Shown here in pieces: positions 5,035 through 55,541 of a stretch of 63,567 nucleotides of DNA. The stretch is from the NCBI GenBank assembly GCA_964371145.1, contig CAYJKO010000001.1:74567-138133 (forward strand), given 5' to 3'. Both the position numbers and the translations under genes were made by a program. Numbering within the stretch: the first letter of the stretch is position 1; each line of letters begins with the position of its first letter. The notes under the pieces were generated by a model that saw only the letters and a list, made by a program, of their open reading frames with translations, did not search any database and was not told where the DNA came from. Origin of the DNA: an uncultured Muribaculaceae bacterium (GTDB lineage Bacteria; Pseudomonadota; Alphaproteobacteria; Rs-D84).

Positions 5035-5601
5035 ATGGATACTATGCAAGAAAATAAACCTATTTTAATTGTTGGATTGGGTAATCCCGGATCCAAATAT
5101 GAACAAACCAGACACAATATCGGATTTATGGTGTTGGATTATTTCGCGAATGAAAATAATGCCGATAAATGGAAATCTGCATTCAATGCGCAAATTACCA
5201 GTTTTGTGTCGCAAAACGGTCGCCGAGTTATTTTGGCAAAGCCTCAAACGTTTATGAACAACAGCGGTCAATCTGTTTTGGCGATTGCTAAATTTTATAA
5301 ATTGGATTTAACCGATATTCTTGTCGTGCATGATGAATTAGATATAAATTTCGGATGCGTTAAAACCAAAATCGGTGGTGGCAGCGCGGGGCACAATGGT
5401 ATAAAATCAATCGATAAATTGGTCGGTCGTGATTTTATTCGTGTTCGTGTCGGTGTGTCACACCCAAGAAATTTAGGATATGACATAGATGCCGCCGATT
5501 GGGTGTTGTCACGTTTTTCAACCAAAGACATGGGTGATATGAAATCTGTAATTTCGCACGCATGCGACAGCATTGATAATTTTATAAATAATAAAAATTA
5601 A
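5035..5601 (+). CDS. pth: Peptidyl-tRNA hydrolase
   Basis: It carries the GLGNPG..Y..TRHNIGF signature. An alternative start is at 5044. Confidence 0.93.
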   Translation: MDTMQENKPILIVGLGNPGSKYEQTRHNIGFMVLDYFANENNADKWKSAFNAQITSFVSQNGRRVILAKPQTFMNNSGQSVLAIAKFYKLDLTDILVVHDELDINFGCVKTKIGGGSAGHNGIKSIDKLVGRDFIRVRVGVSHPRNLGYDIDAADWVLSRFSTKDMGDMKSVISHACDSIDNFINNKN

Positions 5602-28824: not shown

Positions 28825-30744
28825 GTGAGAAAGCTTTTGCCGTTTTTGTGCTGTTTAAAGAGTGTTTTTGTATTAAAAACGCGACTGTCTTTTGCAACTG
28901 TGCCAAGGCTTGTAATCTGCGGAATATTGATGGTTTTGTGCTTTTCCGCGAATGCGAATGCAAATTGCGCAAATAACGAATATTTGGACAATGGTGTTTG
29001 TACGTTATGCCCATGGGGCGGGGCCGCGATTGTCGGTGCGGATAATATCCAAGATTGTTATTTTGATGTGGTTTTTCCGTCAACAACCACAGAATGGGTG
29101 GTTCCTACGACGCATATAACGTGGATCAATACGGTTCCGCAAGATTTGCCGACCAAATTTTATGATATCTTTGAATTGATTGATATTACAACAGGGACAA
29201 AATTACCGTATGACGAAGCAGCGCATACCTATACAGGGATAAATGCAAATACAAAATACAGATTTATAGATATGGTAAACGGATGGGGGGCTGTGAAATC
29301 TGTAAAGGGGATGTTTACAACGGTGCCTTTTACTTCGATCGATTTGCCAAATACATGGGGTAATATATCCTCAACGGAATTAATGTTTTTTAATGCGCCA
29401 AATTTGGTTACAATTAAATTGCCGGATGCTTGGGGTGATAGTTTGGTGTATTTGGCTTCTATGTTTGCGCATTGCAAATCGTTAAAAAATATTAATTTGC
29501 CAGATGATTGGCATAAAGTTCAAAATTTGGGTCAATTATTTTACAATGCATTTGCGTTCGCGGGGACGGAATTGCCGGATACGTGGGGTAATGTTACGAA
29601 CGCATCATATATGTTTTCATCGTGTCGTGAAATGGAAACGGTTGTGTTGCCGGATGATTGGCGTTCGGTTGGTGCCATAACGGCGATGTTTTCGAGCACT
29701 CGTAAATTAAAGACAATCAAATTAAAAGACGAAAATGGTAATATTCGAACCGATTTGCCGCCGAATTCTTTGCCGGCGCGTTGGGGTAATATCAGGGGCA
29801 CAATTAGTTTGTTTTCTAGCGCGTTTGAGTTGGAGGCAATTGCGATACCAGACAGTTGGGATAATATGATAAATGTAAAAAATATGTTTTCTAGCAATTA
29901 TAAATTGACCGATATTAAATTATTGGATGAAAATGGTAATGTTCGCACCGATTTGCCGACGAATTCTTTACCAGTATCTTGGGGCAAAATCACAAATACG
30001 GCATATATGTTTTATAATAACAGATTATTGTCAGAAATAATTATTCCGGACAGTTGGGGTTTGGTACAGGATACGTCATATATTTTTCAAAACGTGCCTT
30101 TGACGGAAATTGATTTGCCGGTGACCTGGGATAATGTTTGGAACACGCGTTTTTTATTGGCGGGAACGAATATCGATTATATTGTGTTGCCAGACAGTTG
30201 GGAAAATATCACAGATTTCGAAGGGATGTTCACAAATGCGGGTTTCACCGCGTCGGGGGTGGGGGTTACAAATGAAACCGATCCAAATATCCCCGTCGGC
30301 ACAATTGCGTCGCCCGCGGTAAAAATATTCCCGTCCCAATTATACGCACCCGAATTGGGTGTGGGTGTGGTTGTTGAATCGTGCCAACCTGGATATTATG
30401 TGTTTGACGAAGTCTGTATTCCTGTGGGGCCGGGATATTACGGTGTTGGTGGTTGGACGGACAGAGCTTCTTGCGGTACTGGTCGGACGTCGATTGGATT
30501 TGGCGCGGCTTCCAGCCATGTGACGGATTGTGGACGTGTATTAAATTTTACATTGCCAGATGGTACGATAAAGCAATTGGGAATGTCTTATACAAGAACT
30601 ACGTTTCCATCTTTGGTGATTAATTCAGGTGGTACGGAATATTATGGTAAAATGAAGCTGTGTAATAATGAATCTGATTATGTTGGAACTTTGCGATTAA
30701 ATTATGATGGCAACACATATTGTGTTTATGATGATAATTTATAA
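28825..30744 (+). CDS. BspA/DUF285-type leucine-rich-repeat surface protein with Cys-rich caps
   Basis: There are about 12 repeats of roughly 24 aa of the form LPD.WG.V.....MF.....L..I (about nt 29335-30235). Ephrin-receptor-like Cys motifs sit at both ends. The GTG start is uncertain. Confidence 0.7.
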   Translation: MRKLLPFLCCLKSVFVLKTRLSFATVPRLVICGILMVLCFSANANANCANNEYLDNGVCTLCPWGGAAIVGADNIQDCYFDVVFPSTTTEWVVPTTHITWINTVPQDLPTKFYDIFELIDITTGTKLPYDEAAHTYTGINANTKYRFIDMVNGWGAVKSVKGMFTTVPFTSIDLPNTWGNISSTELMFFNAPNLVTIKLPDAWGDSLVYLASMFAHCKSLKNINLPDDWHKVQNLGQLFYNAFAFAGTELPDTWGNVTNASYMFSSCREMETVVLPDDWRSVGAITAMFSSTRKLKTIKLKDENGNIRTDLPPNSLPARWGNIRGTISLFSSAFELEAIAIPDSWDNMINVKNMFSSNYKLTDIKLLDENGNVRTDLPTNSLPVSWGKITNTAYMFYNNRLLSEIIIPDSWGLVQDTSYIFQNVPLTEIDLPVTWDNVWNTRFLLAGTNIDYIVLPDSWENITDFEGMFTNAGFTASGVGVTNETDPNIPVGTIASPAVKIFPSQLYAPELGVGVVVESCQPGYYVFDEVCIPVGPGYYGVGGWTDRASCGTGRTSIGFGAASSHVTDCGRVLNFTLPDGTIKQLGMSYTRTTFPSLVINSGGTEYYGKMKLCNNESDYVGTLRLNYDGNTYCVYDDNL

Positions 30745-33933: not shown

Positions 33934-33959
33934 AAATCCCCGAATGGGGATTTTTTTTT
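33934..33959 (+). terminator. Rho-independent terminator after rho
   Basis: The stem aatcccc/ggggatt encloses loop gaat and is followed by a T9 run. Confidence 0.8.
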
Positions 33960-33981: not shown

Positions 33982-34218
33982 ATGATGAAAATTTATATGG
34001 CTGGGTTTATCCTGGCCTTTATTTTGTCCGCATATTTTGCGGGTCAAAAAGTAGGGCGCGAAAAATGTCGCGCAGATTTCGCTGAACGTGAAACAGGCGA
34101 TGTTTTAAATGCTCAAACAAAAATTATAAATACAAAAGAGAAAATAAATGAAGAAGATTATAATAATGATATTGTGTATGTTCGTGATTGGTTGCGCAAA
34201 AAATACACCGCAAAATAA
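33982..34218 (+). CDS. i-spanin-like small type-II membrane protein
   Basis: It has an N-terminal TM helix followed by a charged, helical region. The next gene starts inside its 3' end. Confidence 0.4.
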   Translation: MMKIYMAGFILAFILSAYFAGQKVGREKCRADFAERETGDVLNAQTKIINTKEKINEEDYNNDIVYVRDWLRKKYTAK

Positions 34219-34360
34219 CGTATCGAATTTATTGATTGCACGTCAAATATGTGAACCGATTTATGGAACGGGCAAAGATTGGGATTGTATCAGCGAAAAT
34301 ATGGCTCGCCAAATATATCGACATAACAGAAAGTGCGAAGAAATAAGAAAAAAGAGTTGA
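34148..34360 (+). CDS. o-spanin-like small lipoprotein (LysC/Rz1-like pattern)
   Basis: The lipobox is VIGC. The mature part reads CEPIY...D.D.IS...ARQIYRHNRKC. It starts in the +1 frame 71 nt before the stop of the preceding ORF. An AAAGAG RBS lies upstream. Confidence 0.45.
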   Translation: MKKIIIMILCMFVIGCAKNTPQNNVSNLLIARQICEPIYGTGKDWDCISENMARQIYRHNRKCEEIRKKS

Positions 34361-34384
34361 CAATAATATATGTTTGTGTATAAA
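34357..34384 (+). promoter_or_regulatory. Sigma70-type promoter for the kinase-like operon (near-leaderless)
   Basis: TTGACA (34357-34362), a 16-nt spacer, then TATAAA (34379-34384). The ATG at 34393 is only 8 nt downstream and has no RBS. Confidence 0.5.
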
Positions 34385-34392
34385 ATATTGTT

Positions 34393-35403
34393 ATGAGAGT
34401 TGAATCAAAATCTTTTGTAGCAGATTTAAGCGAGAGCAAAAAACCAGAATTAGAATATATTCATTCTGGTGCTCAAACATCGGCATATAAAATACAATCA
34501 TTGTCTGGGGATTTTGTTTTAAAGGTTCCGAAATATGCACATAGCCCAAAATGGTCAATAAAAATACGTCGGGCAAAAAGATGTTCGGACAATGTTCGTA
34601 AAACTTTTAATAATGATAAATATTTTATCCCAAAAACTTTTATTTCAAATGGCGATGTTTATGAACAATTCGTCCCGGGCATTATGGCAAAAGATTTTAA
34701 TTTCCGCGATATGTGTTCAAAAGAAAAAAAACTGTATGCTTTCTCTATGGCAAATTTTATTAATGATATGTCTGACATGGCGGCCATTAAAACACACGAG
34801 AACGATGAACGTTATCAAATATTACAAGGCGCAGTTGCAAATTTTATTTATTCCGATTTATTGGACGATTTTTCAGATTATATATTGCCAGAAAATAAAA
34901 ATTTTTTGATAGAATTATATGATTTTTTGGCTAATTGTCCCGAAAACAAAACAAAAATTTTAATGCACAACGATTTAAATTACGCAAATGTTTTTATTGA
35001 TGAAAAAAATAAAAAAGTCGGCATAATTGATTTTGAATATATTGAATATGTTTCCCAAATACATTTAATGTATTCTGATTTTGCCCCATCTAAAACATTT
35101 TGGGATACGGTTGATTCATTGCCTCGCAAAACAAATTCAGAATTTAAATGGGAATTTGACATGGATAAAAAACGACTGTATAGATATACAATAAATTTAT
35201 CAAATTCTATGAATAAATTTTATGATAATTACCAAAATATTTATGATTCGTATAAACCCGCGCGCGACGAATTAATAAATGTGAATGAAAATTGTAAAAA
35301 ATTAAAACCTATTTTTGCCAGATTAAAAATTAAAGAAAAATTAAAACAAATGCAAAATAAATCAAAACAATTATGTTTGCCGGAGAAAATTAAATGCAAA
35401 TAA
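34393..35403 (+). CDS. APH/choline-kinase-fold phosphotransferase-like protein, paralogue 1
   Basis: It has the beta3 Lys motif FVLKVPK, the catalytic loop HNDLNYANVF and the DFG-equivalent GIIDFE. The family motif DSLPRKTNSEFKW is shared with the next two genes. Confidence 0.75.
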   Translation: MRVESKSFVADLSESKKPELEYIHSGAQTSAYKIQSLSGDFVLKVPKYAHSPKWSIKIRRAKRCSDNVRKTFNNDKYFIPKTFISNGDVYEQFVPGIMAKDFNFRDMCSKEKKLYAFSMANFINDMSDMAAIKTHENDERYQILQGAVANFIYSDLLDDFSDYILPENKNFLIELYDFLANCPENKTKILMHNDLNYANVFIDEKNKKVGIIDFEYIEYVSQIHLMYSDFAPSKTFWDTVDSLPRKTNSEFKWEFDMDKKRLYRYTINLSNSMNKFYDNYQNIYDSYKPARDELINVNENCKKLKPIFARLKIKEKLKQMQNKSKQLCLPEKIKCK

Positions 35404-36344
35404 CGGGAAATAATTTTATCATTCCAAATTATAGACCGAAAAACGTCGAATATTGTATAAGCAGTGGTTCCGCCAGCGAGGTTTACAGATTAGATGATTC
35501 TGTCGGTGATTTTATTGAAAAAACACCAACGATTGCATATCGTGGGCAATTTGAATTTTGGATGGATACTGTAAAATATTCAAAAAAAATTACAGATAAA
35601 TTGCGCGGATTAAACAATAATAAATATTTTGTGCCGAAAACTTTTATAGCGGGAAATCGTGTTTTTGAACATATGATGCACGGCGTATTATTGAAAGACT
35701 TTAAATGGGAAAATGTAACAAATGTGGATAAAATTAAATACGCATTATCTTATGCGAATTTTATAAATGATTTTTCAGAATTAAAACCGGTTAAAAATAA
35801 AATGTTTTTTGGAAAAGAAATTCGTGGTATTTCAAAAGAAGGCATTTTTCTAGAATATTTATCTGAATTGGATTATATCTTGACCGAAGAAAATTATACA
35901 TTTATAAAAGAAGCTTTTAGAATAGTGGCAAAATTTCCTGAAAACAAACAAATCGTTTTTTGGCATAATGATTTGCATGATAAAAATATTTTTGTAAACG
36001 AAAAAAACAAAAAAATTGGTATCATAGATTTCGAAATGTCTGATTATAATTATAAAATATATGCTATGTATTCTCGCAAATCTTATGGAAAAACATTTTG
36101 GGATACAGTGGATGCGTTGCCGCGTAAAAAAAATTCAGAATTCAAATGGGGTTTCGATTCGGATAAATGTCGTATGTATAGATTTTTAGAATCATTGTTT
36201 ATAGATATGGTTGCGTGGCGTATGGGGTTGGACAAACCGCATCATTTTATTGGAAATTTTAAATATTTAGAAGATATAAACGAAAGATGCGATAAAATTC
36301 GTGCAGTTTTTAACAGGTTGAAAATGAATAAAATCAAAGGTTAA
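35394..36344 (+). CDS. APH/choline-kinase-fold phosphotransferase-like protein, paralogue 2
   Basis: It carries HNDLHDKNIF, GIIDFE and DALPRKKNSEFKW. A GGAG RBS is present and the gene overlaps paralogue 1 by 10 nt. Confidence 0.75.
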   Translation: MQITGNNFIIPNYRPKNVEYCISSGSASEVYRLDDSVGDFIEKTPTIAYRGQFEFWMDTVKYSKKITDKLRGLNNNKYFVPKTFIAGNRVFEHMMHGVLLKDFKWENVTNVDKIKYALSYANFINDFSELKPVKNKMFFGKEIRGISKEGIFLEYLSELDYILTEENYTFIKEAFRIVAKFPENKQIVFWHNDLHDKNIFVNEKNKKIGIIDFEMSDYNYKIYAMYSRKSYGKTFWDTVDALPRKKNSEFKWGFDSDKCRMYRFLESLFIDMVAWRMGLDKPHHFIGNFKYLEDINERCDKIRAVFNRLKMNKIKG

Positions 36345-36345
36345 A

Positions 36346-37398
36346 ATGAAAACAATTTCTTCAAAATCTTTTCAAATAATTCCACAGATTATAAACAATG
36401 GCGAAAATATTAAAATTGGTCGTTGGACGCGTACAGAAAAAACAGATTCTGGGTCGGGGCCGATTGTAAAAAAAATTATAAAAGATATGTCAAACCATTA
36501 TATGGTGGAACATTGGGTTGATCGCGTAAAATATGCTAAATCTGTGACGGATAATTTGCGATTAAATAAAACAGATGCGTATTTTGTTCCGAAAACTTTT
36601 ATATCAAACGGTAATGTATACGAACAGTTTGCGTATGGCACACCGGTCTATGATTTGAAAAATCCATCAAATAAAATAAAAAAATCTGCGACAAACTCTT
36701 TGGCTAATTTTATCAATGATATGTCGGAAATAAAACATACAGAACATTATGTTAAACAAGATGATGGAATTTGGCGTTATGCAGATTTGCCAGAAAGTGT
36801 GCGTATTGATTTCGGAATTGAAAAATATATAGAAACGTACAATTTAAACCAAATCACAGATGAGACAAAAAAAATAGTTGATGAAATTAATCGTCATTTT
36901 AATTTAAACCAAGAATTAGTTTTCTGGCATGGGGATTTGGAACACGAAAATTTCTTTGTTGATGAAAAAACAGGCTTGGTATCGATATTTGATTTTGAAA
37001 TGGCGAAATTGTATTCTAAATATGATATAATGTACGACAGGTTGGATTTTATTCATTATGACGAAGATGATGCGCATAATATGTTCAGAGCCAAGTCTTT
37101 GTTTGATATGGCAGATTCTTTGCCACGCAAAACAAACCCAGATTTTAAATGGAATTATTCAAAAGACGGTTTGGAATTATATGAATTTATTGAAGATATA
37201 AAATTTTGTCTGGATGAATGTTTCGCCGAAAGTTTTTCAAATTACGAAGAATATTATGACCGGCGAACCTTTATAGATTCTTTGAATGAAACGGCAAAAC
37301 GTATGAAAGAAGTTTTCGAGAATTATAAAAAAATCGAAGAATATAAACAGGCAAGGGTGGGGCGGATTAAGGCATTACCTGGGTTTAAAACAAAATAA
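36346..37398 (+). CDS. APH/choline-kinase-fold phosphotransferase-like protein, paralogue 3
   Basis: It carries HGDLEHENFF, SIFDFE and DSLPRKTNPDFKW. It starts 1 nt after the stop of paralogue 2. Confidence 0.75.
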   Translation: MKTISSKSFQIIPQIINNGENIKIGRWTRTEKTDSGSGPIVKKIIKDMSNHYMVEHWVDRVKYAKSVTDNLRLNKTDAYFVPKTFISNGNVYEQFAYGTPVYDLKNPSNKIKKSATNSLANFINDMSEIKHTEHYVKQDDGIWRYADLPESVRIDFGIEKYIETYNLNQITDETKKIVDEINRHFNLNQELVFWHGDLEHENFFVDEKTGLVSIFDFEMAKLYSKYDIMYDRLDFIHYDEDDAHNMFRAKSLFDMADSLPRKTNPDFKWNYSKDGLELYEFIEDIKFCLDECFAESFSNYEEYYDRRTFIDSLNETAKRMKEVFENYKKIEEYKQARVGRIKALPGFKTK

Positions 37399-37406
37399 AA
37401 AAAGAC

Positions 37407-37435
37407 TTGCATATTGAAAATTAATTTGTCATAAT
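37407..37435 (+). promoter_or_regulatory. Promoter for tRNA-Pro
   Basis: TTGCAT, a 17-nt spacer, then CATAAT preceded by TGt (extended -10). It ends 11 nt before the tRNA 5' end. Confidence 0.45.
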
Positions 37436-37446
37436 TGTTCGGTAAT

Positions 37447-37523
37447 CGGGGCGTAGCTCAGTCTGGTAGAGTGCTTGGTTTGGGACCAAGATGTCGCGTG
37501 TTCGAATCATGTCGCCCCGACCA
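37447..37523 (+). tRNA. tRNA-Pro (anticodon TGG), CCA encoded
   Basis: The acceptor is CGGGGCG/CGCCCCG, the anticodon loop is TTTGGGA and the T-arm is GCGTG-TTCGAAT-CATGT. Total length is 77 nt. Confidence 0.9.
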
Positions 37524-37729
37524 GATTTAATAAAAACAGCCGTTTTAGACGGCTGTTTTTATTAAATATTGTTCGCGGACGTTGATGTGTGCAGAGAACA
37601 CGCGGCGTGTTCGAGACGATAGCCCGTGAAAACGAGCAAATGCGAAGTTTAAACGGTTGCGAGTCGAAAGGGGTCCAATTCCCAACGGGAATTAGGGAAT
37701 ATACAATCATGTCGCCCCGACCAGATTTA
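37524..37729 (+). mobile_element. Mini-insertion (about 175 bp) bounded by 25-nt direct repeats of the tRNA-Pro 3' end; att-scar-like
   Basis: The sequence aatcatgtcgccccgaccagattta occurs exactly at 37505-37529 and 37705-37729. Each copy is followed by a different terminator hairpin (37532-37562 and 37731-37763). Confidence 0.5.
37532..37562 (+). terminator. Terminator after tRNA-Pro
   Basis: The stem cagccg/cggctg encloses loop ttttaga and is followed by a T-run. Confidence 0.7.
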
Positions 37730-38531: not shown

Positions 38532-41500
38532 TTAGAATTGATATCTGGCTTTGAATGTTCCGCCGTGGCTTGAAAAATCCGGGCGACCTTCGAAATCATA
38601 GCTGATGCCGAATGTCCATGCTTTGATTTCTGTTTCCAAACCAATTGATAATTCAATCGCGAATGGGTTTAATGCTTCGCCTGTGATTGCATAGTTCGAA
38701 CCATTAAAGTTTACAACGCTGTTTGTATCATTGGACAAGATGTCATAAGATATTCCCATACGTGCAATCGGATTCAAATTATATTTGCCGTCCATTATAA
38801 ACCAATCTGTTTGGTAATCTGTTGCCAAAGTGGTTGTTAAAATGGTTGCGTTATCTGTGGATATTTCTTGGCCCAATGAATCTGTGTAATCACCATGTGA
38901 TACATTCATTAATTGTAAACCAAATTCAGGTGTCCAACCGTTGCCCATATCATACCCCGCAAATGCAGTCAAATTCAGATTATTTGCGTCGAAATCCGCA
39001 GTTTTTGAAACGCCAGATGCATTTGTTTCTTCTTCAAAACTTGCAAAGCTCATGCCCAAAGCCCCACGGATATGCCACATATCTGCACTTTTATATTTTG
39101 CATATGCGTATAATGAATGTCCGGTTGCCTCTGTTTCGGATACATCATTATCAATTGAACCTGAATTATATCCGTATGCAAATCCAACTAAAACATCCGG
39201 TGTGATTTTTTTATCAAATCCGAACGCCATACCCGCATCTGTTGTTGTGAAACCATAAGATTTGTCGGTATTTCCTTTGTTGCTGAATCTGCCCAATATT
39301 GCCGCCCAAGTCGATCCATTTTCATAGAATTTTGATGCGTCAGTTGTAAATTCAGTGTTTTGACGTTGCGCAATTTCATTCGTCATTAATCCCGCCATAT
39401 TTCTGAATGATTGGGTAACTTTTTGCGAATCGTTCGGAGCAATCGCATTCAGTGCCGTAACATAACCTTTTTCGTCATGTTGTGATAATGAATTCAATTG
39501 TGATGCAACATTTTGTGCGTCACCTGTTAAACCTGTTGCATTATCCCATATTGTGCCAACCGCAATGTTGTTAGATGTGCCACCAGCGTTGTTTACGACG
39601 TCTTTGATATCTGCGTTATATGTTAACACATATGTACCATCAGTTGATCCTTTTGTAACTTCGTATCTGTTGTTTGATAACATTGAAGCGAAGTCACCAA
39701 TTATTAAATCAGCATCAATCAATAATATATCACCAGTTGATGTGTGCTTTGCCAATTTGTTTTCAGCAACAGTCAACATCAACTTTGAAGTGTCGGAATC
39801 CAAGTTTAAACCGCCAATGATTTTAAGGCTGCCACCCGAATGCATATTTGAACCTTCTGAAATATCGGTCAATTCAATCGCCAACCCACCTTCAATTTTT
39901 GTAGGAGAGTGCAGGATTACATGTCCTGTTCCAATATCTAAAATACCCGATTGTGTTACATTAAACTGGTTTTGGCCCACAATTGCGGATTCATCAAATT
40001 TAACGTGTGTATTGATATTTGTTGTACCTGTGCCTAAAATATTTCCGATAAAAGTATCGCTGTTTATATTAAAGATACCGTTGTTTGTTAAATTAATATT
40101 TTCAAAATTACCATTTGTTGATGTAAATGTACCTTCGTTTGTAATATCTGTTGTTGTAATTGTGCCATAGTTTGTAAGTGAAGCTCCGGAAACAATTGTC
40201 AAAGAATTATCAGATACAATTTCACCATAGTTATATGAAACGCCGGTTAGCTCGGTGTTTGCAATACCAAATATACCATAGTTATTTAATGATCCAATGG
40301 TTGCGGCTCCATGACCTAAAAATCTGACACCTCCTGCGACATTCACGGTCCCCTGTATCAATCCAGTATTAGAATATGAATCACCTATGATATTCAATGT
40401 ACCCGTTCCTTCAAAGGCATGAGTATTTTCAATCGCGCCAGTAATCGTTCCATTGTTTGTAAATGGACCATATTGAACTTTTACCAAATGCTGGGTGATG
40501 TTACCGGTATTTGTGCCGGTGATATCAAGTGTGCCAGTTCCAGTAATCGTATTTGCATTATTACCGGATGTATTGAATTTTCCATCATTTATTATGTCTG
40601 CAGTAATCGAGCCTGTATTGTTTAATGTGTATTTTTCACTTATTACGACAGCGCTTTGGGTTATTGTTCCCGCATTAGTCGCAGACGTTGTACCCGAATT
40701 ACCTGAATTGATAAATAATGCACCGTTCCCATCAATTGTTTGACCAACGCCCAAATCGAACAGGGCATAAATATTCCCGTTATTCGTTAATGTTTTGCCA
40801 TCTTCGATTGATAATAGTTCTTGATATACATTGGCGGCATTCGTTGTGTTTTCAGCAATATTTAATTCACCATCGCCACCTAACGCTGTATCAAACGTTC
40901 CACCGGTCAAAGATAATTTTCCTGAATTATTTATATCGCTTCCGATATTCAAGTCGTCCGCATTTATTGTTAATTGACCTTTGGATAAAATTGCCAGCCC
41001 ACCTTGATTTATTTCATTGGCTGTTGTTTGGCCTTCAAAAATAACAGTTCTGCCATATCCATGTATGCCGTTTGTGATATTATTTACGCCACTTAAATCA
41101 ACAATTCCATTATTTACGATGTCTTGGTTATTGTTGTTAAATGCGATGTTTTCGACATATGCCAAACTGTTTTCATTAACAATCAAGGCTTTGTTAAATC
41201 CAGAGATTTCAGAGCCTGTGGTTCCTGCAATTTTCAAATCGTAACCAACGTCATTTTCATTGACGGCAATACCATTGTATTCATTGGATGAACCATATCC
41301 AGAAAGATTGGCACCATTATTTAAATTCAATGTATAGGTTGTGTCTGTCGCATTATCACGATGCAGTGTTCCAAGGTCGCCTGGTTCCATAACTAGCATA
41401 TCAGAATTTGTTGAAAAAGATGTGAAACTTGCATCGTTCCCATTTAAACCACGAATCCAGTCGGTTAATCCGGTTGAAGATGCAATTCTTTCAACGGTTA

Positions 41501-43871
41501 ATTGACCTGTTGCAGATTGGGTAAATGTATATTTATGTGTTGCGGTTGTTGTTATGATTTCGCCGCCCAGAACACTTGTTGTAATTGAACCCAAATTACC
41601 CAACAGATATTCGATATTGTCCAAATCGCCTTCGGTTGTGATATTGATATTTGACAATGTCAAATTCGCATCACCACCGTTTGTGATATTGATTTTATCA
41701 TAATTTGTAAGTCCTGCCGTTAAATCAGCATCGATTTGCAAATTACCAGTTCCGGTTAAAGATCCAATTTCGCGGGCAGGGTCTGTTGTGGATTCTGCCG
41801 CCTCGCTTAGTGTGATTGTTTTGCCGTTCAAATCCAAAGTACCTTGGATATTTGCGGATGAACCCAGGTATGTTGCATTTTCTGAGAATAATACGGTTGT
41901 GCCACTGGCGCCCAGAATTGTTTCGTTGATTGAATCATTGGTCACCTCTAGTCTACCAAAGTTCATTATGAACCCTGCATCTTCCAATGATGTGTTTAAT
42001 GTTCCACCAATGTTAACGGTTGCAGCGCCCATTGTTCCATTGTTAATCATTGTCGCATTACCAAGAATCATTGATGATGAGTTGATTACACCGTTGTTTG
42101 TAAATGTGCTGTTCGTGACATCAAGTCCGAAACTTGATATTGTGCTTCCGGCAGATAATGTAGTGTCGGTATTAATAAATACAGAACCAGAACCGGATAT
42201 ATCTTTGTCCAAAATCAGTTCAGAAGAATAGTCAGTAAAAGTTAAATATCCATTGTTTACAATATCTTTATCAAATGTCGAATTTTGCAAATAGGCTGTA
42301 CCGCTGCTATTAACAATGATGTTATTTTCAATATTGCTGTTATTGAATATGATGTTTTGACCATTGATGGTAACATCGCCCGTTCCCATTATGTCTTTGG
42401 TAACTGTTTTTAAAGCGTTCGAACTGTTTTCAACAATCAGATTTCCTTCATTGCCCAAGCTGTTAAAATCGTTAATCGCATTGACGGTGTCAATGTCTGT
42501 GATCAGGGTTGCGTGATTTAATATATTAACATTTGTTTTGATGGTGTTGCCACTGTTTAAAACAACAGTGCTGCCAGATGTGATATTTGTTGTGCCGCTT
42601 GTAACGTCAACATTATGTGCCAACGTTCCACCCGTCAGGTCAAGTGTTCCATTGACATAAGTAATGTTTCCAATATCGTCTGCATTGGTTGTAAGTGTTC
42701 CACCATTGCTAATACTAATATTGTTTGAAATAAATCCAGTATTTTGGATATCAATGCCGTCTGTTATTCTGAACACTCCTGAGCCCGAAACATCCACTTC
42801 GTTGTCAACTTTTGCCTGGAAAATTCCATTGTTTGTAAGCGCACCCGTGATATTCAATGCGCCATTGTTTGTAAAGGTTACATTGTCGCCTATGGTTAAA
42901 TTATTTTGTGTTATGCTGCCATTGTTTATGACCCCACCGTTGACGGCAATTGTTAAATTCCCTGTTCCTTCGATTTTTTCACCAGCGTCCAGCGTAATGT
43001 ATCTGAATGTTGTATCACCATTATTCGTTAATGTTTCACCATCTGCAATGGCTAAACGGTCTTGTATAACATTGCCTGTAAATATTGTGCCGTTGGCGAT
43101 GATTACATCCCCGCTGATCCCTGTTAAATCTTGATCCAACGTTCCGCCCGTAAATGTAATTTTTCCTTCATTTTGGAATGTATTAACAAGTACATTATTT
43201 GCATTTATTGTCAAACCTGCATTAACATTTGTTAAATACAATTTATCTTGGTCAATTACTACGCCATGTTCGAATATAACATTGTTTCCTGTTATATTTG
43301 TGACGCCGTTGCCATCTATATATCCTTCATCAAAGGTTACATTGCCGCCTATATTCAATGTGCCATTGTTCATAACAGAGACATTGTTATTTGTAAATTT
43401 CAACCCAGTAAGCTTCAGCGTTCCGCCCGCATCATTTATAAAAGCGTTATTAAAGCCTGTGATTAATGAATCAGGACCGGTTCCTTCGACATTTAATGTA
43501 TAGCCCGCAGTAACAGTAATACCGTTATGGTTTTTCGAATTGTTATATCCAATCAAATCATAATCATTTAATTCCAAAGCTAATTCACGCAAAGACCCCG
43601 AACGTGCCGTTGTTCCCAATTCGGCTGCGGTGCTTACAATTATATCGCCGCTTGCGGAAAATGTTGTGTATGTATCATCAACGCCGTTTGTGCCATTGAT
43701 AAAGTCTTTTATATCTATGGGTGCTGCTGCATGTGAGGTTGCAGGTGTTAAAATAACGCTCCCTAAAACCGCGCCGGCAACAATGGCTTGACCAGATTTG
43801 TAAGATCGAAAAAGCACGCTTTTGTAAAGTTTTGATAATAATTTAATTCCGGTTTTGGTAAGGGTTTTCAT
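38532..43871 (-). CDS. Giant autotransporter (type Va) adhesin-like protein
   Basis: The product is 1779 aa. It has an extended signal peptide, a passenger rich in Asn/Gly/Thr beta-helix-type repeats, and a C-terminal beta-barrel of about 280 aa ending FKARYQF. Confidence 0.88.
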   Translation of the reverse strand: MKTLTKTGIKLLSKLYKSVLFRSYKSGQAIVAGAVLGSVILTPATSHAAAPIDIKDFINGTNGVDDTYTTFSASGDIIVSTAAELGTTARSGSLRELALELNDYDLIGYNNSKNHNGITVTAGYTLNVEGTGPDSLITGFNNAFINDAGGTLKLTGLKFTNNNVSVMNNGTLNIGGNVTFDEGYIDGNGVTNITGNNVIFEHGVVIDQDKLYLTNVNAGLTINANNVLVNTFQNEGKITFTGGTLDQDLTGISGDVIIANGTIFTGNVIQDRLAIADGETLTNNGDTTFRYITLDAGEKIEGTGNLTIAVNGGVINNGSITQNNLTIGDNVTFTNNGALNITGALTNNGIFQAKVDNEVDVSGSGVFRITDGIDIQNTGFISNNISISNGGTLTTNADDIGNITYVNGTLDLTGGTLAHNVDVTSGTTNITSGSTVVLNSGNTIKTNVNILNHATLITDIDTVNAINDFNSLGNEGNLIVENSSNALKTVTKDIMGTGDVTINGQNIIFNNSNIENNIIVNSSGTAYLQNSTFDKDIVNNGYLTFTDYSSELILDKDISGSGSVFINTDTTLSAGSTISSFGLDVTNSTFTNNGVINSSSMILGNATMINNGTMGAATVNIGGTLNTSLEDAGFIMNFGRLEVTNDSINETILGASGTTVLFSENATYLGSSANIQGTLDLNGKTITLSEAAESTTDPAREIGSLTGTGNLQIDADLTAGLTNYDKINITNGGDANLTLSNINITTEGDLDNIEYLLGNLGSITTSVLGGEIITTTATHKYTFTQSATGQLTVERIASSTGLTDWIRGLNGNDASFTSFSTNSDMLVMEPGDLGTLHRDNATDTTYTLNLNNGANLSGYGSSNEYNGIAVNENDVGYDLKIAGTTGSEISGFNKALIVNENSLAYVENIAFNNNNQDIVNNGIVDLSGVNNITNGIHGYGRTVIFEGQTTANEINQGGLAILSKGQLTINADDLNIGSDINNSGKLSLTGGTFDTALGGDGELNIAENTTNAANVYQELLSIEDGKTLTNNGNIYALFDLGVGQTIDGNGALFINSGNSGTTSATNAGTITQSAVVISEKYTLNNTGSITADIINDGKFNTSGNNANTITGTGTLDITGTNTGNITQHLVKVQYGPFTNNGTITGAIENTHAFEGTGTLNIIGDSYSNTGLIQGTVNVAGGVRFLGHGAATIGSLNNYGIFGIANTELTGVSYNYGEIVSDNSLTIVSGASLTNYGTITTTDITNEGTFTSTNGNFENINLTNNGIFNINSDTFIGNILGTGTTNINTHVKFDESAIVGQNQFNVTQSGILDIGTGHVILHSPTKIEGGLAIELTDISEGSNMHSGGSLKIIGGLNLDSDTSKLMLTVAENKLAKHTSTGDILLIDADLIIGDFASMLSNNRYEVTKGSTDGTYVLTYNADIKDVVNNAGGTSNNIAVGTIWDNATGLTGDAQNVASQLNSLSQHDEKGYVTALNAIAPNDSQKVTQSFRNMAGLMTNEIAQRQNTEFTTDASKFYENGSTWAAILGRFSNKGNTDKSYGFTTTDAGMAFGFDKKITPDVLVGFAYGYNSGSIDNDVSETEATGHSLYAYAKYKSADMWHIRGALGMSFASFEEETNASGVSKTADFDANNLNLTAFAGYDMGNGWTPEFGLQLMNVSHGDYTDSLGQEISTDNATILTTTLATDYQTDWFIMDGKYNLNPIARMGISYDILSNDTNSVVNFNGSNYAITGEALNPFAIELSIGLETEIKAWTFGISYDFEGRPDFSSHGGTFKARYQF

Positions 43872-44042: not shown

Positions 44043-45275
44043 ATGATAGTTGTAAAAAAAATAATGAAAGATACTTCGAAAAAAATATCAAATAAAATCG
44101 CAAATACGACGCGTATTCGCAATGGTTTGGCTGTTTTTTCAGAAAAGAAAAAAATAAAAAGTTTAATAACAAAAGTTTCAAATTCTTTAATTAATGAATT
44201 TACGACAGATGTCGACATCAGATACAATATGATTGTTAATTTTAAAAAAGATTTTAACCAATCATATTTAAATAAAAACCAAATTCAAAAAAATAAAGTA
44301 TATGACGAAATTGTATCAAAAATTTCAAAAAACAACGGGGTTGAACCAGAATATGTTCGTGCAAATATGGATAAAGGCGTCGTTCGTTTAATGTATAAAA
44401 ATAATCCAGAAAAACAAAATGAAATTTCAAATTATTTTCCCGCTGGTATGACGGGCTGGTCGGATGAATTGATAAAAAAAATAAATGCCGAAAAAAATAA
44501 ATTCAATGCATCACAATATACGAAAACTAAAAATAAATTTATTCTTGAATATTGGGTGCCAGCATTGGCGTTCGCAGAAATTAATAATATGATGAATTAC
44601 CAATCTGTCCGATACAAAAATTTTGAACCGGTTGAAGACCGCGGGTATTGTTTATGGGTGTTTATGTTGACTTTATACAAACAAAATGCGAAATACAAAA
44701 TATTCGATTTTTTGCACGATAATATGAATAAAGGTATTTCAAACCATAAATTATTAGAATTATTCCAGAACAATTATCCGGAATATATACATGTAAAAGA
44801 AACAGATGATAATATTATCGACGTTTTGAATGAAAGCAAAATTAAAGATGGTTCTATTATAATAAAAGGAAATTTGAACGGTTATTTTTTGCATGCTTTG
44901 TTATATAGAAAAATTGGACAAAAGAAATATATCCAATCTTTTAATGAAGAAAATGTGCGCGAATTAAGAAATATGCGAAGCCAAGCCGCCATATTGGATA
45001 CGCACGGTTTAATAAAAAAATCTGTGGAAAATAAAATTAAAAATATGAATAAAAAAGAACAACTGAATTATTTAATTAATTTAGACGCCCAAATTAATTC
45101 AGATTCAATTATAGATAAAAATTTCAAAGATTTATTGGCCGAGGGTAAAAAATACAATCATAAAAAGCAATGGGATGAATTTTATAAAAGATATGACATT
45201 GTGATGGATGCAAAATTACATACCGAGCAATCAAAAACCAGATTAAAAATTGCCAGATTGGAAAGAGGAAAATAA
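44043..45275 (+). CDS. Hypothetical Lys/Asn-rich protein (no signal peptide)
   Basis: This is a 410-aa intact ORF. TGaTACAAT at 44007-44015 lies upstream. I recognise no family. Confidence 0.6.
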   Translation: MIVVKKIMKDTSKKISNKIANTTRIRNGLAVFSEKKKIKSLITKVSNSLINEFTTDVDIRYNMIVNFKKDFNQSYLNKNQIQKNKVYDEIVSKISKNNGVEPEYVRANMDKGVVRLMYKNNPEKQNEISNYFPAGMTGWSDELIKKINAEKNKFNASQYTKTKNKFILEYWVPALAFAEINNMMNYQSVRYKNFEPVEDRGYCLWVFMLTLYKQNAKYKIFDFLHDNMNKGISNHKLLELFQNNYPEYIHVKETDDNIIDVLNESKIKDGSIIIKGNLNGYFLHALLYRKIGQKKYIQSFNEENVRELRNMRSQAAILDTHGLIKKSVENKIKNMNKKEQLNYLINLDAQINSDSIIDKNFKDLLAEGKKYNHKKQWDEFYKRYDIVMDAKLHTEQSKTRLKIARLERGK

Positions 45276-46884: not shown

Positions 46885-47397
46885 TTATATACTGTAAAAT
46901 AATTTTAACTCGGCTTTTCTGCGGTTTATTAATCCGGCTGATATTTTTCCTCCCGTTTTATTCCACGCCAACCATGCAGATTCTAAATCAGGATAAATGT
47001 CGGATTTAAAATCTGGGTTATTTATATGTTTACAAACGCTTGATTTTGCAAAACCGCCAATCCCAATATTGAATGCAAAAATAACCAACGCATCAAATTG
47101 ATTTTGATTTAATTTTGCGGTTATAAATTTATTGACCGCATCTTCAAATCTGTATAAATCAGATTTTAATAATTCTGTTGCCCCGGATTCGTCCAGACCG
47201 CTTGTATATTTTCCGGATTGTTTTTCCGTGTTCGTCAATAGATGTCCATATCCGATTGTTGCGCCACGGGGCGGGTTTGCGAAATTGGGGACAGGGCGAC
47301 CCGTTTGATCGTCATATATTATATGTATCCCATTGTGTTTTATTGCACCTTCTAAATCTTTTAATAATAAAATGGCATTTTTACTGATTTTTTTCAT
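46885..47397 (-). CDS. GH24 phage-type lysozyme
   Basis: It has LEG (catalytic Glu), YDD, TIGYGH, the DALV.FAFN..G motif and GL.NRR..E. An AAAGGA RBS is present. Confidence 0.85.
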   Translation of the reverse strand: MKKISKNAILLLKDLEGAIKHNGIHIIYDDQTGRPVPNFANPPRGATIGYGHLLTNTEKQSGKYTSGLDESGATELLKSDLYRFEDAVNKFITAKLNQNQFDALVIFAFNIGIGGFAKSSVCKHINNPDFKSDIYPDLESAWLAWNKTGGKISAGLINRRKAELKLFYSI

Positions 47398-47715: not shown

Positions 47716-47870
47716 GCGGGTCCCTTTCGCAATCGTATATAATACACGGCACTTTGTTTGTGCATTATAACTATTTGCACGAACCTTTTACGGTTCTCAT
47801 CCGGGGACGGACAGAGAATAAAAAAATCCCCAAAAGGGGATTGTTTTATTCTGGCGCGCCCCACAGGATT
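47716..47870. repeat. Copy 2 of the 155-bp repeat; its last 19 nt are the real tRNA-Arg 3' end
   Basis: The evidence is as for copy 1. Each unit contains a minus-strand terminator hairpin, aatcccc-tttt-ggggatt. Confidence 0.9.
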
Positions 47871-47928
47871 CGAACCTGTGACCTGCAGATTAGAAATCTG
47901 ATGCTCTATCCAGCTGAGCTAGGGGCGC
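47852..47928 (-). tRNA. tRNA-Arg (anticodon TCT), CCA encoded
   Basis: The acceptor is GCGCCCC/GGGGCGC, the anticodon loop is TTTCTAA and the T-arm is ACAGG-TTCGAAT-CCTGT. Total length is 77 nt. TGtTATAAT on the minus strand (47938-47946) lies upstream. Confidence 0.9.
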
Positions 47929-54233: not shown

Positions 54234-54898
54234 TGAGAATTTTAAATAAAAAAATTGCACAAAAAAAATCTTCGGTCGCTTGGCTTCAACGCCAGGCGTC
54301 TGATCCGTATGTTGCGCGCGCTCAAAAAGACGGATATCGTTCACGTGCAGTATATAAAATTTTGGAAATGAATGAAAAATACAGATTTTTCCGTAATAAC
54401 CAAACCGTTGTTGATTTGGGGGCCGCTCCCGGCAGCTGGACTGAATATGTTGCACGTGAATATCCAAAATCTAAAATTTTTGCAATGGATTTATTGGAAA
54501 TCAAACCTATTGTCGGCGTTGAATTTTATCAGGGCGATTTTACAACGGATGACGCTTTGGATTGGTTAAATGAAAAATTAAATTTACCGGCGGCCGATTC
54601 GGACGCGAATGGATGCGTTGATGTTATTATGTCGGATATGGCGCCAAATACCGTTGGTCATAAAAGAACCGATCATATCCGTCAAATGGTGTTATTGGAA
54701 TACGCGTATGATTTCGCGAAATCTGCGTTAAAAGTTGGTGGTACGTTTATTGCTAAATCTTTTACAGGTGGTACGACGACCGATTTATTAAAAGAAATTC
54801 GTCAAAAATTTGACGTCGTTCATCATATGAAACCGCCATCTTCTCGTAAAGATTCAGTTGAAATGTTTATCGTTGCAATTGGTTATCGTGGTAAGTAG
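54233..54898 (+). CDS. rlmE: 23S rRNA (uridine-2'-O)-methyltransferase RlmE/FtsJ
   Basis: It has WLQRQ..D.YV..AQKDGYRSRA.YK and VVDLGAAPGSW. A TAATG overlap couples it to the preceding gene. Confidence 0.92.
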   Translation: MRILNKKIAQKKSSVAWLQRQASDPYVARAQKDGYRSRAVYKILEMNEKYRFFRNNQTVVDLGAAPGSWTEYVAREYPKSKIFAMDLLEIKPIVGVEFYQGDFTTDDALDWLNEKLNLPAADSDANGCVDVIMSDMAPNTVGHKRTDHIRQMVLLEYAYDFAKSALKVGGTFIAKSFTGGTTTDLLKEIRQKFDVVHHMKPPSSRKDSVEMFIVAIGYRGK

Positions 54899-55538
54899 TA
54901 AAAATCGGTTTCAAAACACATTTTTCTTTGAAGACTAAATTTGAAATTATTTTATTTGTTTTGTTTTCTATAACTTTTGCCTCGACTTCATTTATTCTTT
55001 TATTGTACGGAACGTATCGATAAAACATTTTCAAATTTTTTGAAATTATTTGATTAATGTCGTTTTGATATGTTGCCTGATTATGGTCTTGTAAAACGTG
55101 CATTATTTCATGTGCGATATATGAAAATGCAACTTCGATATGAAATTTGTATTTATAAAAAGACGGATAAAATAATATTTTTTTTAAAGATGAACAATAT
55201 GAAGCTATGGTTGATTTTTCTTCTGCGTCATATTGAATGTTTTCTAATAAAATATTTGATTTTGGCAATGTTTTTTTTAATGTGTAATTGGTTAAATACA
55301 ATATGTCGGACGGGGAATACGAATCGTATAAATTGTGTTTTTGGATGTATTCCCAGCCAAATGATGCAATTTTGTCTGCGCGTTCGTTTAATTTATCTTT
55401 ATCTAAAATTGCCGAATCGTTCACCAGATTGAAAAAATTTTTTTCGAATATTTCGGTCTTTGTGTCCATTGAATTCTTCGATTTTTTGTATGTTTTATAC
55501 ATTTGTTTTATTTCGAATTTGTTTTTATAGTCTGGCAT
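54867..55538 (-). CDS. Small HExxHxxQ protein, paralogue 3
   Basis: It carries AHEIMHVLQ and then VPYNKRINEVEA. It is homologous over its full length to the two upstream genes. Its 3' end overlaps rlmE by 32 nt. Confidence 0.7.
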   Translation of the reverse strand: MPDYKNKFEIKQMYKTYKKSKNSMDTKTEIFEKNFFNLVNDSAILDKDKLNERADKIASFGWEYIQKHNLYDSYSPSDILYLTNYTLKKTLPKSNILLENIQYDAEEKSTIASYCSSLKKILFYPSFYKYKFHIEVAFSYIAHEIMHVLQDHNQATYQNDINQIISKNLKMFYRYVPYNKRINEVEAKVIENKTNKIISNLVFKEKCVLKPIFTTYHDNQLQR

Positions 55539-55541
55539 TTT

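Follow-up and report, generated by a model that had tools for sequence, protein, structure and literature searches.

AmgK and NahK are APH-fold kinases that phosphorylate scavenged N-acetylmuramic acid (MurNAc), N-acetylglucosamine (GlcNAc) or N-acetylgalactosamine (GalNAc) for envelope synthesis. Here we describe a block of three tandem kinase genes of the APH type on contig CAYJKO010000001.1 (assembly GCA_964371145.1), within a stretch of 63,567 nucleotides (nt; contig positions 74,567 to 138,133, forward strand) that we call the window and number from its first letter. The block consists of three open reading frames (ORFs), all on the + strand and coupled, with a 10-nt overlap between the first two and a 1-nt gap between the second and third:

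34393..35403, + strand: kinase paralog 1, 336 amino acids, APH/choline-kinase-type fold, without a Shine-Dalgarno sequence
35394..36344, + strand: kinase paralog 2, 316 amino acids, GGAG 8 nt 5′ of the ATG, C-terminal tail absent
36346..37398, + strand: kinase paralog 3, 350 amino acids, AAGG 5′ of the gene, which starts 1 nt past the paralog 2 stop

The coordinates, lengths and junctions match exactly those given in an earlier reading made from the letters alone (the sequence-only reading), and the ribosome-binding sites that it gave to genes 2 and 3 were seen as well. We conclude that the three genes form one operon and encode intact ATP-dependent O-phosphotransferases of APH fold, for which phosphotransfer activity is predicted. 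Our preferred reading, to which we give a probability of roughly 45%, is that the products would be cytoplasmic small-molecule O-phosphotransferases that salvage an envelope precursor and whose specificity was split or broadened after a triplication.

The three paralogs are 35-39% identical in pairwise comparison and a search with kinase 2 recovers kinase 1 at E = 8.7e-56, so that their paralogy lies far above chance. Alignments established residue by residue that all three keep the phosphotransferase catalytic core, as had been read from the sequence. The N-lobe Lys is K44, K43 and K43 in copies 1, 2 and 3, respectively; the catalytic loop (Brenner motif, H-x-D-x4-N), which reads H-(N/G)-D-L-x3-N, is formed by H192-D194-N199, H191-D193-N198 and H195-D197-N202; and the metal-binding motif (I/F)-D-F-E is present in each, with its Asp at D213, D212 and D216. 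Copy 3 is the most divergent and carries a 13-amino-acid insertion after the DFE motif. The segment D(S/A)LPRK(T/K)N(S/P)(E/D)FKW had been taken for a motif private to the three genes; it is found in all of them, but it is an instance of a family-wide signature, LPRxxNPxLxW, which accompanies two other family signatures, VPKTFISxGxVxE and ANFINDMSE.

Conservation was scored at 52 sites that are at least 80% conserved across the rest of the family. Copies 1, 2 and 3 keep 41, 42 and 39 of these positions, compared with 51 for the single-copy kinase of a related locus (L020, below) and 40-45 for the most divergent other members. Every invariant position is kept in all three copies, namely the Gly of the Gly-loop, the Lys, the H, D and N of the catalytic loop, the D of DFE, and the N and W of the signature, and hence the loss of catalytic residues from two of the three copies, which had been named as a possible sign of decay, was not observed. 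The window copies thus appear intact yet quickly diverged after duplication. Most family members (P0003-P0009, P0011-P0035; the Enterousia homologs) end in a helix rich in Lys and Arg, to which a conserved terminal peptide, LVPMSHY(E/Q)K, is joined; this tail is degenerate in copies 1 and 3 (window 35368-35400 and 37363-37395) and absent from copy 2; in copy 1 the peptide is modelled at low confidence, with a predicted local distance difference test score (pLDDT) of about 53.

Profile searches found the catalytic region and little else. Pfam APH (PF01636) scored 30.8, 31.9 and 25.3 bits against copies 1, 2 and 3 (gathering cutoff 23.2), with a match that spans only about 45-65 of the 239 profile positions, around the catalytic loop. 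Pfam Choline_kinase (PF01633) scored 37.2 bits against copy 2, and 23.6 and 23.2 bits against copies 1 and 3, with a cutoff of 29. Matches to NCBIfam models were sub-threshold and limited to the catalytic loop (KdkA, APH(3′), Bud32, LanKC); the curated KdkA model was not reached (12-13.8 bits vs a cutoff of 142), and PF06293 was absent among the Pfam matches. Against PDB sequences the family profile matched Plasmodium choline kinase (E = 1e-6) and casein kinase II alpha (E about 1e-5), in each case over the catalytic segment only. With nothing beyond catalytic-loop matches in Pfam, NCBIfam and PDB, no orthology of each copy to a distinct known kinase emerged; such orthology, had it been found, is what the sequence-only reading had said would count against a single triplicated gene.

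Structure models of copies 1 and 2 were made with AlphaFold (AF2) and compared with solved structures by Foldseek. The models had pLDDT values of 88 (copy 1) and 85 (copy 2), with predicted template-modelling scores of 0.83-0.85 (0.85 for copy 1), and they predict a beta-rich N-lobe with a long helix, a helical subdomain of APH type before the catalytic loop, and a helical C-terminus. The best matches of copy 1 were APH(2′′)-Ib/IVa and Mph(2′), at E about 1e-10, and that of copy 2 was APH(2′′)-IVa; for APH(2′′), Mph(2′) and APH(9) structures the Foldseek probability was 1.00, with E from 1e-10 to 1e-7. All 50 best PDB matches of both models were small-molecule kinases, including APH(2′′)-Ib/IIa/IVa/Ia, APH(3′), APH(9), Mph(2′), AmiN, corramycin kinase and ethanolamine kinase. 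Read by eye, the kinase translations show no evident hydrophobic, signal-like segment at the N-terminus. On the modelled fold, the catalytic residues and the Pfam score, we place the kinases in the APH/choline-kinase-like phosphotransferase superfamily (PF01636, clan PKinase), and we regard the fold assignment as secure.

The block lies between an Rz/Rz1-like (spanin-type) gene pair and a tRNA gene:

33982..34218, + strand: Rz-like, i-spanin-type gene, 78 amino acids, N-terminal transmembrane helix, match to phrog_1026 at E = 1e-4
34148..34360, + strand: Rz1-like, o-spanin-type lipoprotein gene, 70 amino acids, lipobox VIGC, match to phrog_1275 at E = 9e-11
37447..37523, + strand: tRNA-Pro (anticodon tgg), found by ARAGORN and scoring 62.3 bits with the Rfam tRNA model, identical in L020; downstream boundary of the kinase block

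At L020 the gene order is an i-spanin-like gene, an overlapping o-spanin-like gene, one kinase and tRNA-Pro(tgg). A neighbour-joining tree of 55 sequences, rooted with a sister family, united the three window copies in one clade (bootstrap 87) with the L020 kinase as its sister (support 58). Because the window copies are monophyletic and the same locus holds a single kinase in L020, one ancestral gene became three in the window lineage. The claim that one accessory gene was triplicated locally therefore stands, and we consider the lineage-specific triplication of the gene between the Rz/Rz1-like pair and tRNA-Pro secure, as judged from the tree and the gene order. Between the window and L020, identity is 31-35% for the kinases and 49-56% for the adjoining spanin-like proteins; likewise, among Enterousia-type genomes the kinase is 53-61% identical where mltG is 68-88% identical in the same genome pairs. 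The kinase thus appears to evolve faster than its neighbour genes. L020 (also L026; CAYIZJ010000054.1) is a 4.2-kb contig that was deposited in an uncultured Muribaculaceae bin and stops a few bases beyond the tRNA end. It is probably mis-binned: its spanin-like pair is alphaproteobacterial, its tRNA-Pro is identical to that of the window, and between them stands a family kinase.

An exhaustive hidden Markov model (HMM) search of 1.84 billion cluster representatives gave about 41 family clusters at E < 1e-39, past which the scores fall to the sister family of about 300-amino-acid proteins (E 1e-27 to 1e-13). The ten family clusters that were looked up bear the name “hypothetical protein” only. 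Among species-representative genomes, 17 of the 18 family matches are titled Candidatus Enterousia or uncultured Alphaproteobacteria metagenome-assembled genomes from animal gut, and the 18th is L020. The family is rare, nameless and, as far as sampled, almost confined to the order Rs-D84 / Candidatus Enterousia. The window itself comes from this group according to its Rho protein, which is 90-92% identical to that of many gut Alphaproteobacteria, one of them named Ca. Enterousia avicola. Rs-D84 genomes are smaller than 1 Mb and are without pathways for amino acids, nucleotides, lipids and parts of glycolysis; they nonetheless encode RodA, MreB and MrdA, and a partner-dependent lifestyle has been proposed for them (PMC12306168). 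We found no literature on the kinase family, the Enterousia / Rs-D84 papers found being genome-level descriptions only. A metagenome scan for closer relatives or spanin-kinase loci returned ten loci, none above 37% identity and none with spanin-like genes.

Elsewhere in the order, family members keep company with envelope genes. At 17 Enterousia-type loci the kinase stands immediately beside mltG (YceG), in a conserved stretch that runs acpP, fabF, AMP-dependent ligase, mltG, kinase, outer-membrane-protein-like gene(s), rpsL, rpsG and fusA; at L001 mltG and the kinase are 10 nt apart. Two paralog groups flank mltG, one upstream and one downstream, and L009 has both. The sister family is found in comparable surroundings: at L044-L046 two of its kinases lie in tandem between an M23/EnvC-like gene and ctpA (L044 4069-5900), and at L023 (5279-6930) another abuts a Fic gene without an intergenic gap, beside a ctpB-like gene. 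The L044-L046 genome compares with the window at 65% identity for TyrS and 75% for CtpA, and in the window ctpA directly adjoins the M23/EnvC-like gene, and no kinase separates the two. Three envelope contexts were therefore found, namely mltG (17 loci), EnvC-ctpA/ctpB (sister family) and the Rz/Rz1-like pair (window and L020). Other members, including P0039, stand alone among housekeeping genes. At L003 (2210-4194; also L004) a family kinase follows an MsbA-like ABC transporter gene and precedes three tandem proteins of about 190-230 amino acids, the first two of which are detectably similar to each other.

For the expression of the block, two sites upstream of kinase 1 matter:

33934..33953, + strand: intrinsic terminator-like hairpin and T-run after rho, an 8-bp stem followed by TTTTTTTT (terminator scan)
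34357..34386, + strand: sigma-70-type promoter-like site, TTGACA-16 nt-TATAAA (or 18 nt, TAAAAT)

The hairpin marks the upstream limit of the transcription unit(s). In the promoter-like site, TTGACA occupies 34357-34362 and TATAAA 34379-34384, with 8 nt from TATAAA to the kinase-1 ATG at 34393; the site overlaps the stop codon of the o-spanin-like gene and ends 6-8 nt 5′ of the ATG. It is the best promoter-like match of the region (11/12), and an ungapped alignment places TTGAC at the identical distance of 30 nt from the kinase ATG in L020. A promoter and a near-leaderless transcript are thus plausible, as the sequence-only reading had proposed from the same hexamers, spacing and lack of a ribosome-binding site, and their better support comes from the L020 comparison; the arrangement is not, however, peculiar to this operon. 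About half of the window genes have a Shine-Dalgarno sequence, and TATAAT-like boxes within about 10 nt of a start without one were seen, for example, at 5035 (+), 56755 (-), 57313 (+) and 48071 (+), so that leaderless-type starts seem common in this genome and not special to the kinase operon. The operon would be transcribed from its own conserved sigma-70-type promoter, with a start about 7 nt after the -10 box giving a leader of roughly 0-3 nt, and genes 2 and 3 would be translated by coupling through their own Shine-Dalgarno sites. The terminator scan found no terminator between kinase 3 and tRNA-Pro (37398-37447).

We propose that the three kinases act in the cytoplasm, where the conserved Lys, the H-N-D-x4-N loop and the DFE metal site would phosphorylate a hydroxyl of a small metabolite. 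This metabolite would most likely be one scavenged for envelope biogenesis, either an amino sugar of peptidoglycan or lipopolysaccharide type or a head group of choline/ethanolamine type. Such a role is suggested by the placement of these genes beside envelope genes (mltG, envC-ctpA, Rz/Rz1-like) in an auxotrophic order. The fast divergence of the triplicated copies outside the catalytic and signature motifs would fit a broadened or split specificity in an import-dependent organism. We agree with the sequence-only reading that the substrate cannot be read from the sequence, and the substrate class given here is a guess from the neighbourhood in one order and from the type of structural relatives.

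Several observations weigh against this proposal. No salvage-pathway partner (nucleotidyltransferase, LicC/LicD or MurU-like) lies next to any copy examined. The neighbourhood evidence comes from one bacterial order, in which shared ancestry can preserve adjacency without a functional link, and the two mltG-flanking paralog groups are probably one ancestral arrangement, as in L009. The sequences gave no signature of a particular substrate, the Pfam, NCBIfam and PDB sequence matches covering just the catalytic segment of 40-80 residues, and template-modelling scores (TM-scores) against solved structures are only about 0.45-0.55, at 14-19% identity. As to the transcription unit, the promoter and the leaderless state are proposed from consensus matching and one comparison; promoter-like sites are not enriched in this AT-rich region (24, vs 26.6 +/- 5.3 in shuffles), and since their count equals the shuffled expectation a consensus match proves little by itself. 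Transcription may also read through from the spanin-like genes, as the terminator scan showed no convincing terminator before kinase 1. Finally, the nearest structural relatives in the model comparison are antibiotic kinases, which favours the explanation considered next.

The three enzymes could instead be detoxifying, resistance-type kinases directed at antibiotics (aminoglycoside-, macrolide- or amicoumacin-like) or at toxins from neighbours or the partner, with triplication widening the spectrum. With both models the top structural matches were antibiotic kinases (APH(2′′)-Ib/IIa/IVa, Mph(2′)-II, MphB/MphH, APH(9), AmiN and corramycin kinase), and fast divergence with repeated tandem duplication is typical of genes in a chemical arms race; weak matches to NCBIfam APH(3′) models (E 0.0016-0.09) point the same way. 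The PDB, however, is rich in antibiotic kinases, which biases the best matches, and the NCBIfam resistance models (APH_3p and related) reached only 12.2-18 bits vs cutoffs of 205-400. Unlike patchy mobile resistance genes, the family also shows stable synteny beside housekeeping genes in many species of one order with genomes of less than 1 Mb. Nothing in the surroundings seen pointed to a plasmid, transposon or integron, and the searches of phage and viral collections gave no relatives. We consider a resistance function unlikely.

A broader variant of the envelope proposal treats the family as an order-specific, fast-diversifying kinase set that serves the partner-dependent lifestyle, either by capturing scavenged envelope building blocks or by working with the Rz/Rz1-like pair and the peptidoglycan-remodelling genes, with tandem expansion (one to three copies here, two elsewhere) that tracks partners or nutrients. 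We offer this as a speculation that is rather unlikely to hold as a whole.

It is also conceivable that the products are protein kinases or partner-directed effectors, acting on the cell's own envelope machinery or on a host or partner cell, with the basic C-terminal tail as an export or docking signal. The match to casein kinase II alpha runs from the catalytic loop to the metal-binding segment, Enterousia members have the Lys/Arg-rich helix and terminal peptide described above, and fast evolution, lineage-specific expansion, the sister-family kinase that abuts a Fic gene and the lifestyle proposed for Rs-D84 (PMC12306168) would all suit such a role. Yet Pfam Pkinase (PF00069) scored 13.9-14.4 bits, below its cutoff of 31.7, the 50 top structural matches include no protein kinase, and the helical insertion is of APH type. 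The terminal peptide, for its part, is degenerate in window copies 1 and 3, missing from copy 2 and modelled with low confidence, and no secretion-system genes were recognised among the window ORFs, the majority of which had been assigned just by reading the first 70 residues by eye. Taken together, we find a protein-kinase or effector role very unlikely.

The surroundings of the block had been described as an orphan phage-lysis-like gene pair on one side and a tRNA carrying an att-like scar on the other, and the kinases might accordingly be cargo (a moron) of a degraded prophage or integrative island that was inserted at tRNA-Pro behind a lysis cassette. The likeness of the upstream pair to phage genes holds. 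The two genes overlap by 71 nt out of frame, and together they show the membrane anchor, outer-membrane lipoprotein, overlapping gene arrangement and spanin PHROG matches of a two-component spanin. The pair is not, however, set in a phage lysis cassette: rho lies upstream, the kinases lie downstream and no holin or endolysin adjoins it. The i-spanin-like protein has a 49% identical homolog in L020, directly 5′ of the kinase, and the o-spanin-like protein is 44-56% identical in L020 and in L038-L043, with the same overlapping arrangement. In L038-L043 (Enterousia-type) the pair sits 3′ of rho, and unrelated genes take the place of a family kinase after it; in L038 the 317-amino-acid protein that comes next gave no match to the family HMM with filters off. 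The positions of the pair are 33982-34360 in the window, 2552-2936 in L020, 10183-10525 in L038 and 10562-10907 in L041. As the same pair stands 3′ of rho in other genomes of the clade without a kinase after it, it is not evidence of a prophage or island and, contrary to the orphan status first given to it, is a conserved chromosomal pair. It looks like a domesticated or core envelope-spanning pair, not prophage debris, and it provides conserved chromosomal context for the kinases, with which a working link is hypothetical.

A stand-alone phage-type lysozyme gene lies in the window at 46885-47397 (-) (Pfam Phage_lysozyme, E = 1e-29), beside tRNA-Arg at 47852-47928 (-) and about 12.5 kb from the spanin-like pair; in L041 a GH108 lysozyme gene lies about 5 kb from the pair. 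The lysozyme and spanin-like genes could be a dispersed lysis module, either domesticated or like that of a gene transfer agent.

On the downstream side of the block the features are as follows:

37407..37435, + strand: tRNA-Pro promoter-like site, TTGCAT-17 nt-CATAAT, with CATAAT and the leader identical in L020
37705..37729, + strand: second copy of the 25-nt 3′ end of tRNA-Pro, a direct repeat of the first copy at 37505-37529

The 25-nt repeat is real, with a hairpin terminator after each copy; the copies are 200 nt apart and enclose about 175 nt (37530-37704) of relatively GC-rich sequence that folds only marginally better than shuffles (z = -1.9). Rfam matches near the kinase block were tRNAs only, with no other structured RNA. 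The repeat may have been left behind as a scar when an integrative element was excised or deleted, but it lies 3′ of the tRNA whereas the kinases lie 5′, and there is no integrase ORF, so that it does not delimit the kinase block.

Base composition likewise says little about origin. The content of G and C (GC) is 27-32% in the kinase block and about 37-38% in the window, and at almost all loci examined the family gene falls below its surroundings, the difference being about 1-6 points, and 5-9 points in the window. Because lower GC is a family trait at chromosomal loci too, it is no proof of horizontal or recent transfer.

Queried by tblastn with copy 3 and with the o-spanin-like protein, 50,697 phage records gave no hits. 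The family alignment brought up no relative in IMG/VR, and a Foldseek search of BFVD returned nothing close. A PADLOC scan for defence systems gave only a marginal match to a fragment of MkoA (copy 2, E = 0.0024). Spanin PHROG matches, low GC, the att-like duplication and a phage-type lysozyme 9.5 kb from the block are what a prophage origin has in its favour. Set against these are the conserved position of the spanin-like pair, a repeat that lies on the wrong side of the tRNA, the absence of integrase, terminase and capsid genes from the neighbourhood, the lack of relatives in the phage and viral collections, and a locus that is shared with L020 at 49-56% protein identity. We conclude that the locus is, as far as gene order in related contigs can tell, a conserved chromosomal position and not a mobile one, and that a prophage or island origin of the kinases is barely credible.

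Decay or loss of catalysis in two or all three of the copies, which would then be pseudokinases without a function of their own, could be argued from their 39-42 of 52 conserved positions vs 51 for L020, their long branches and very low GC, the lost tail of copy 2 and the insertion in copy 3, but is highly improbable given intact reading frames of normal length, every invariant family position kept three times over, preserved coupling and Shine-Dalgarno sites, and conservation scores within the range of full-length members.

Other features of the window were noted in passing. A second tandem trio of paralogs lies at 54867-56755 (-) (223, 221 and 182 amino acids; 25-29% identical; 27-33% GC); the sole family match, to DUF2201_N, is weak and unconvincing, and the trio is another lineage-specific expansion. 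No similarity was found between this trio and the three paralogs 3′ of the L003 kinase. A 410-amino-acid ORF at 44043-45275 (+), in a stretch of 27-30% GC, has no Pfam or PADLOC match. The region is flanked by a large surface-type protein of the BspA-type leucine-rich repeat/DUF285 kind at 28825-30744 (+) (Pfam LRR_5, E = 1e-17), and at 38532-43871 (-) there is a 1779-amino-acid surface-type repeat protein, the C-terminus of which reads like a putative autotransporter barrel. Large proteins that resemble this flanking pair are also found near rho in L038-L043.

Rs-D84 / Enterousia bacteria are widespread, uncultured gut Alphaproteobacteria that apparently rely on other cells for most building blocks, and a gene family retained in genomes of less than 1 Mb is a reasonable candidate for a specific need such as a salvage step. 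Identification of the substrate could help explain these bacteria or help to culture them. Beyond that, the family is a new, uncharacterised subfamily of a very well known kind of enzyme; nothing points to an unconventional mechanism, and what is added is one more uncharacterised APH-fold kinase family for which a conventional mechanism is expected.

How the kinases stand beside described enzymes can be set out as follows. The antibiotic kinases APH(2′′)-Ib/IIa/IVa, Mph(2′)-II, APH(9) and AmiN (PF01636) are the best structural matches and share the bilobal fold, the helical subdomain, the Lys, the H-x-D-x4-N loop and the D-F-x motif. Identity to them is nevertheless low, at the 14-19% and TM-scores given above, the resistance models are missed by an order of magnitude in score, and the family differs in its own signatures, its basic C-terminal helix and its conserved, non-mobile chromosomal setting in one order. 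The choline/ethanolamine kinases (PF01633; LicA; Plasmodium 3FI8/6YXS) give the best PDB sequence match, which covers only about 75 residues, and the kinase motifs H-N-D-L-x3-N and I-D-F-E-x-x-x-Y resemble the Brenner and choline-kinase motifs. Compared with the choline kinase motif D-x-E-x4-N (IDFEYSGYN in Plasmodium), the Asn is present in copy 2 only (DFEMSDYN), with V in copy 1 and Y in copy 3, and this position is variable in the family; no licB, licC, licD or other CDP-choline gene was found among the neighbours in the window and more than 20 related loci. The sister family (P0042-P0082, Alphaproteobacteria), the nearest relatives outside the family at about 25% identity, is alike in its tandem paralogs and envelope-gene neighbours (L044-L046); it differs in being without the LPRxxNPxLxW signature and the C-terminal tail and in the member that abuts a Fic gene, and it is equally uncharacterised. 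With AmgK and NahK, finally, no specific sequence or structural match was obtained and no MurU/GlmU-type nucleotidyltransferase is adjacent, so that the likeness is one of fold and context only: between them, the family and its sister family adjoin the peptidoglycan-remodelling genes mltG, envC/M23 and ctpA in an auxotrophic lineage.

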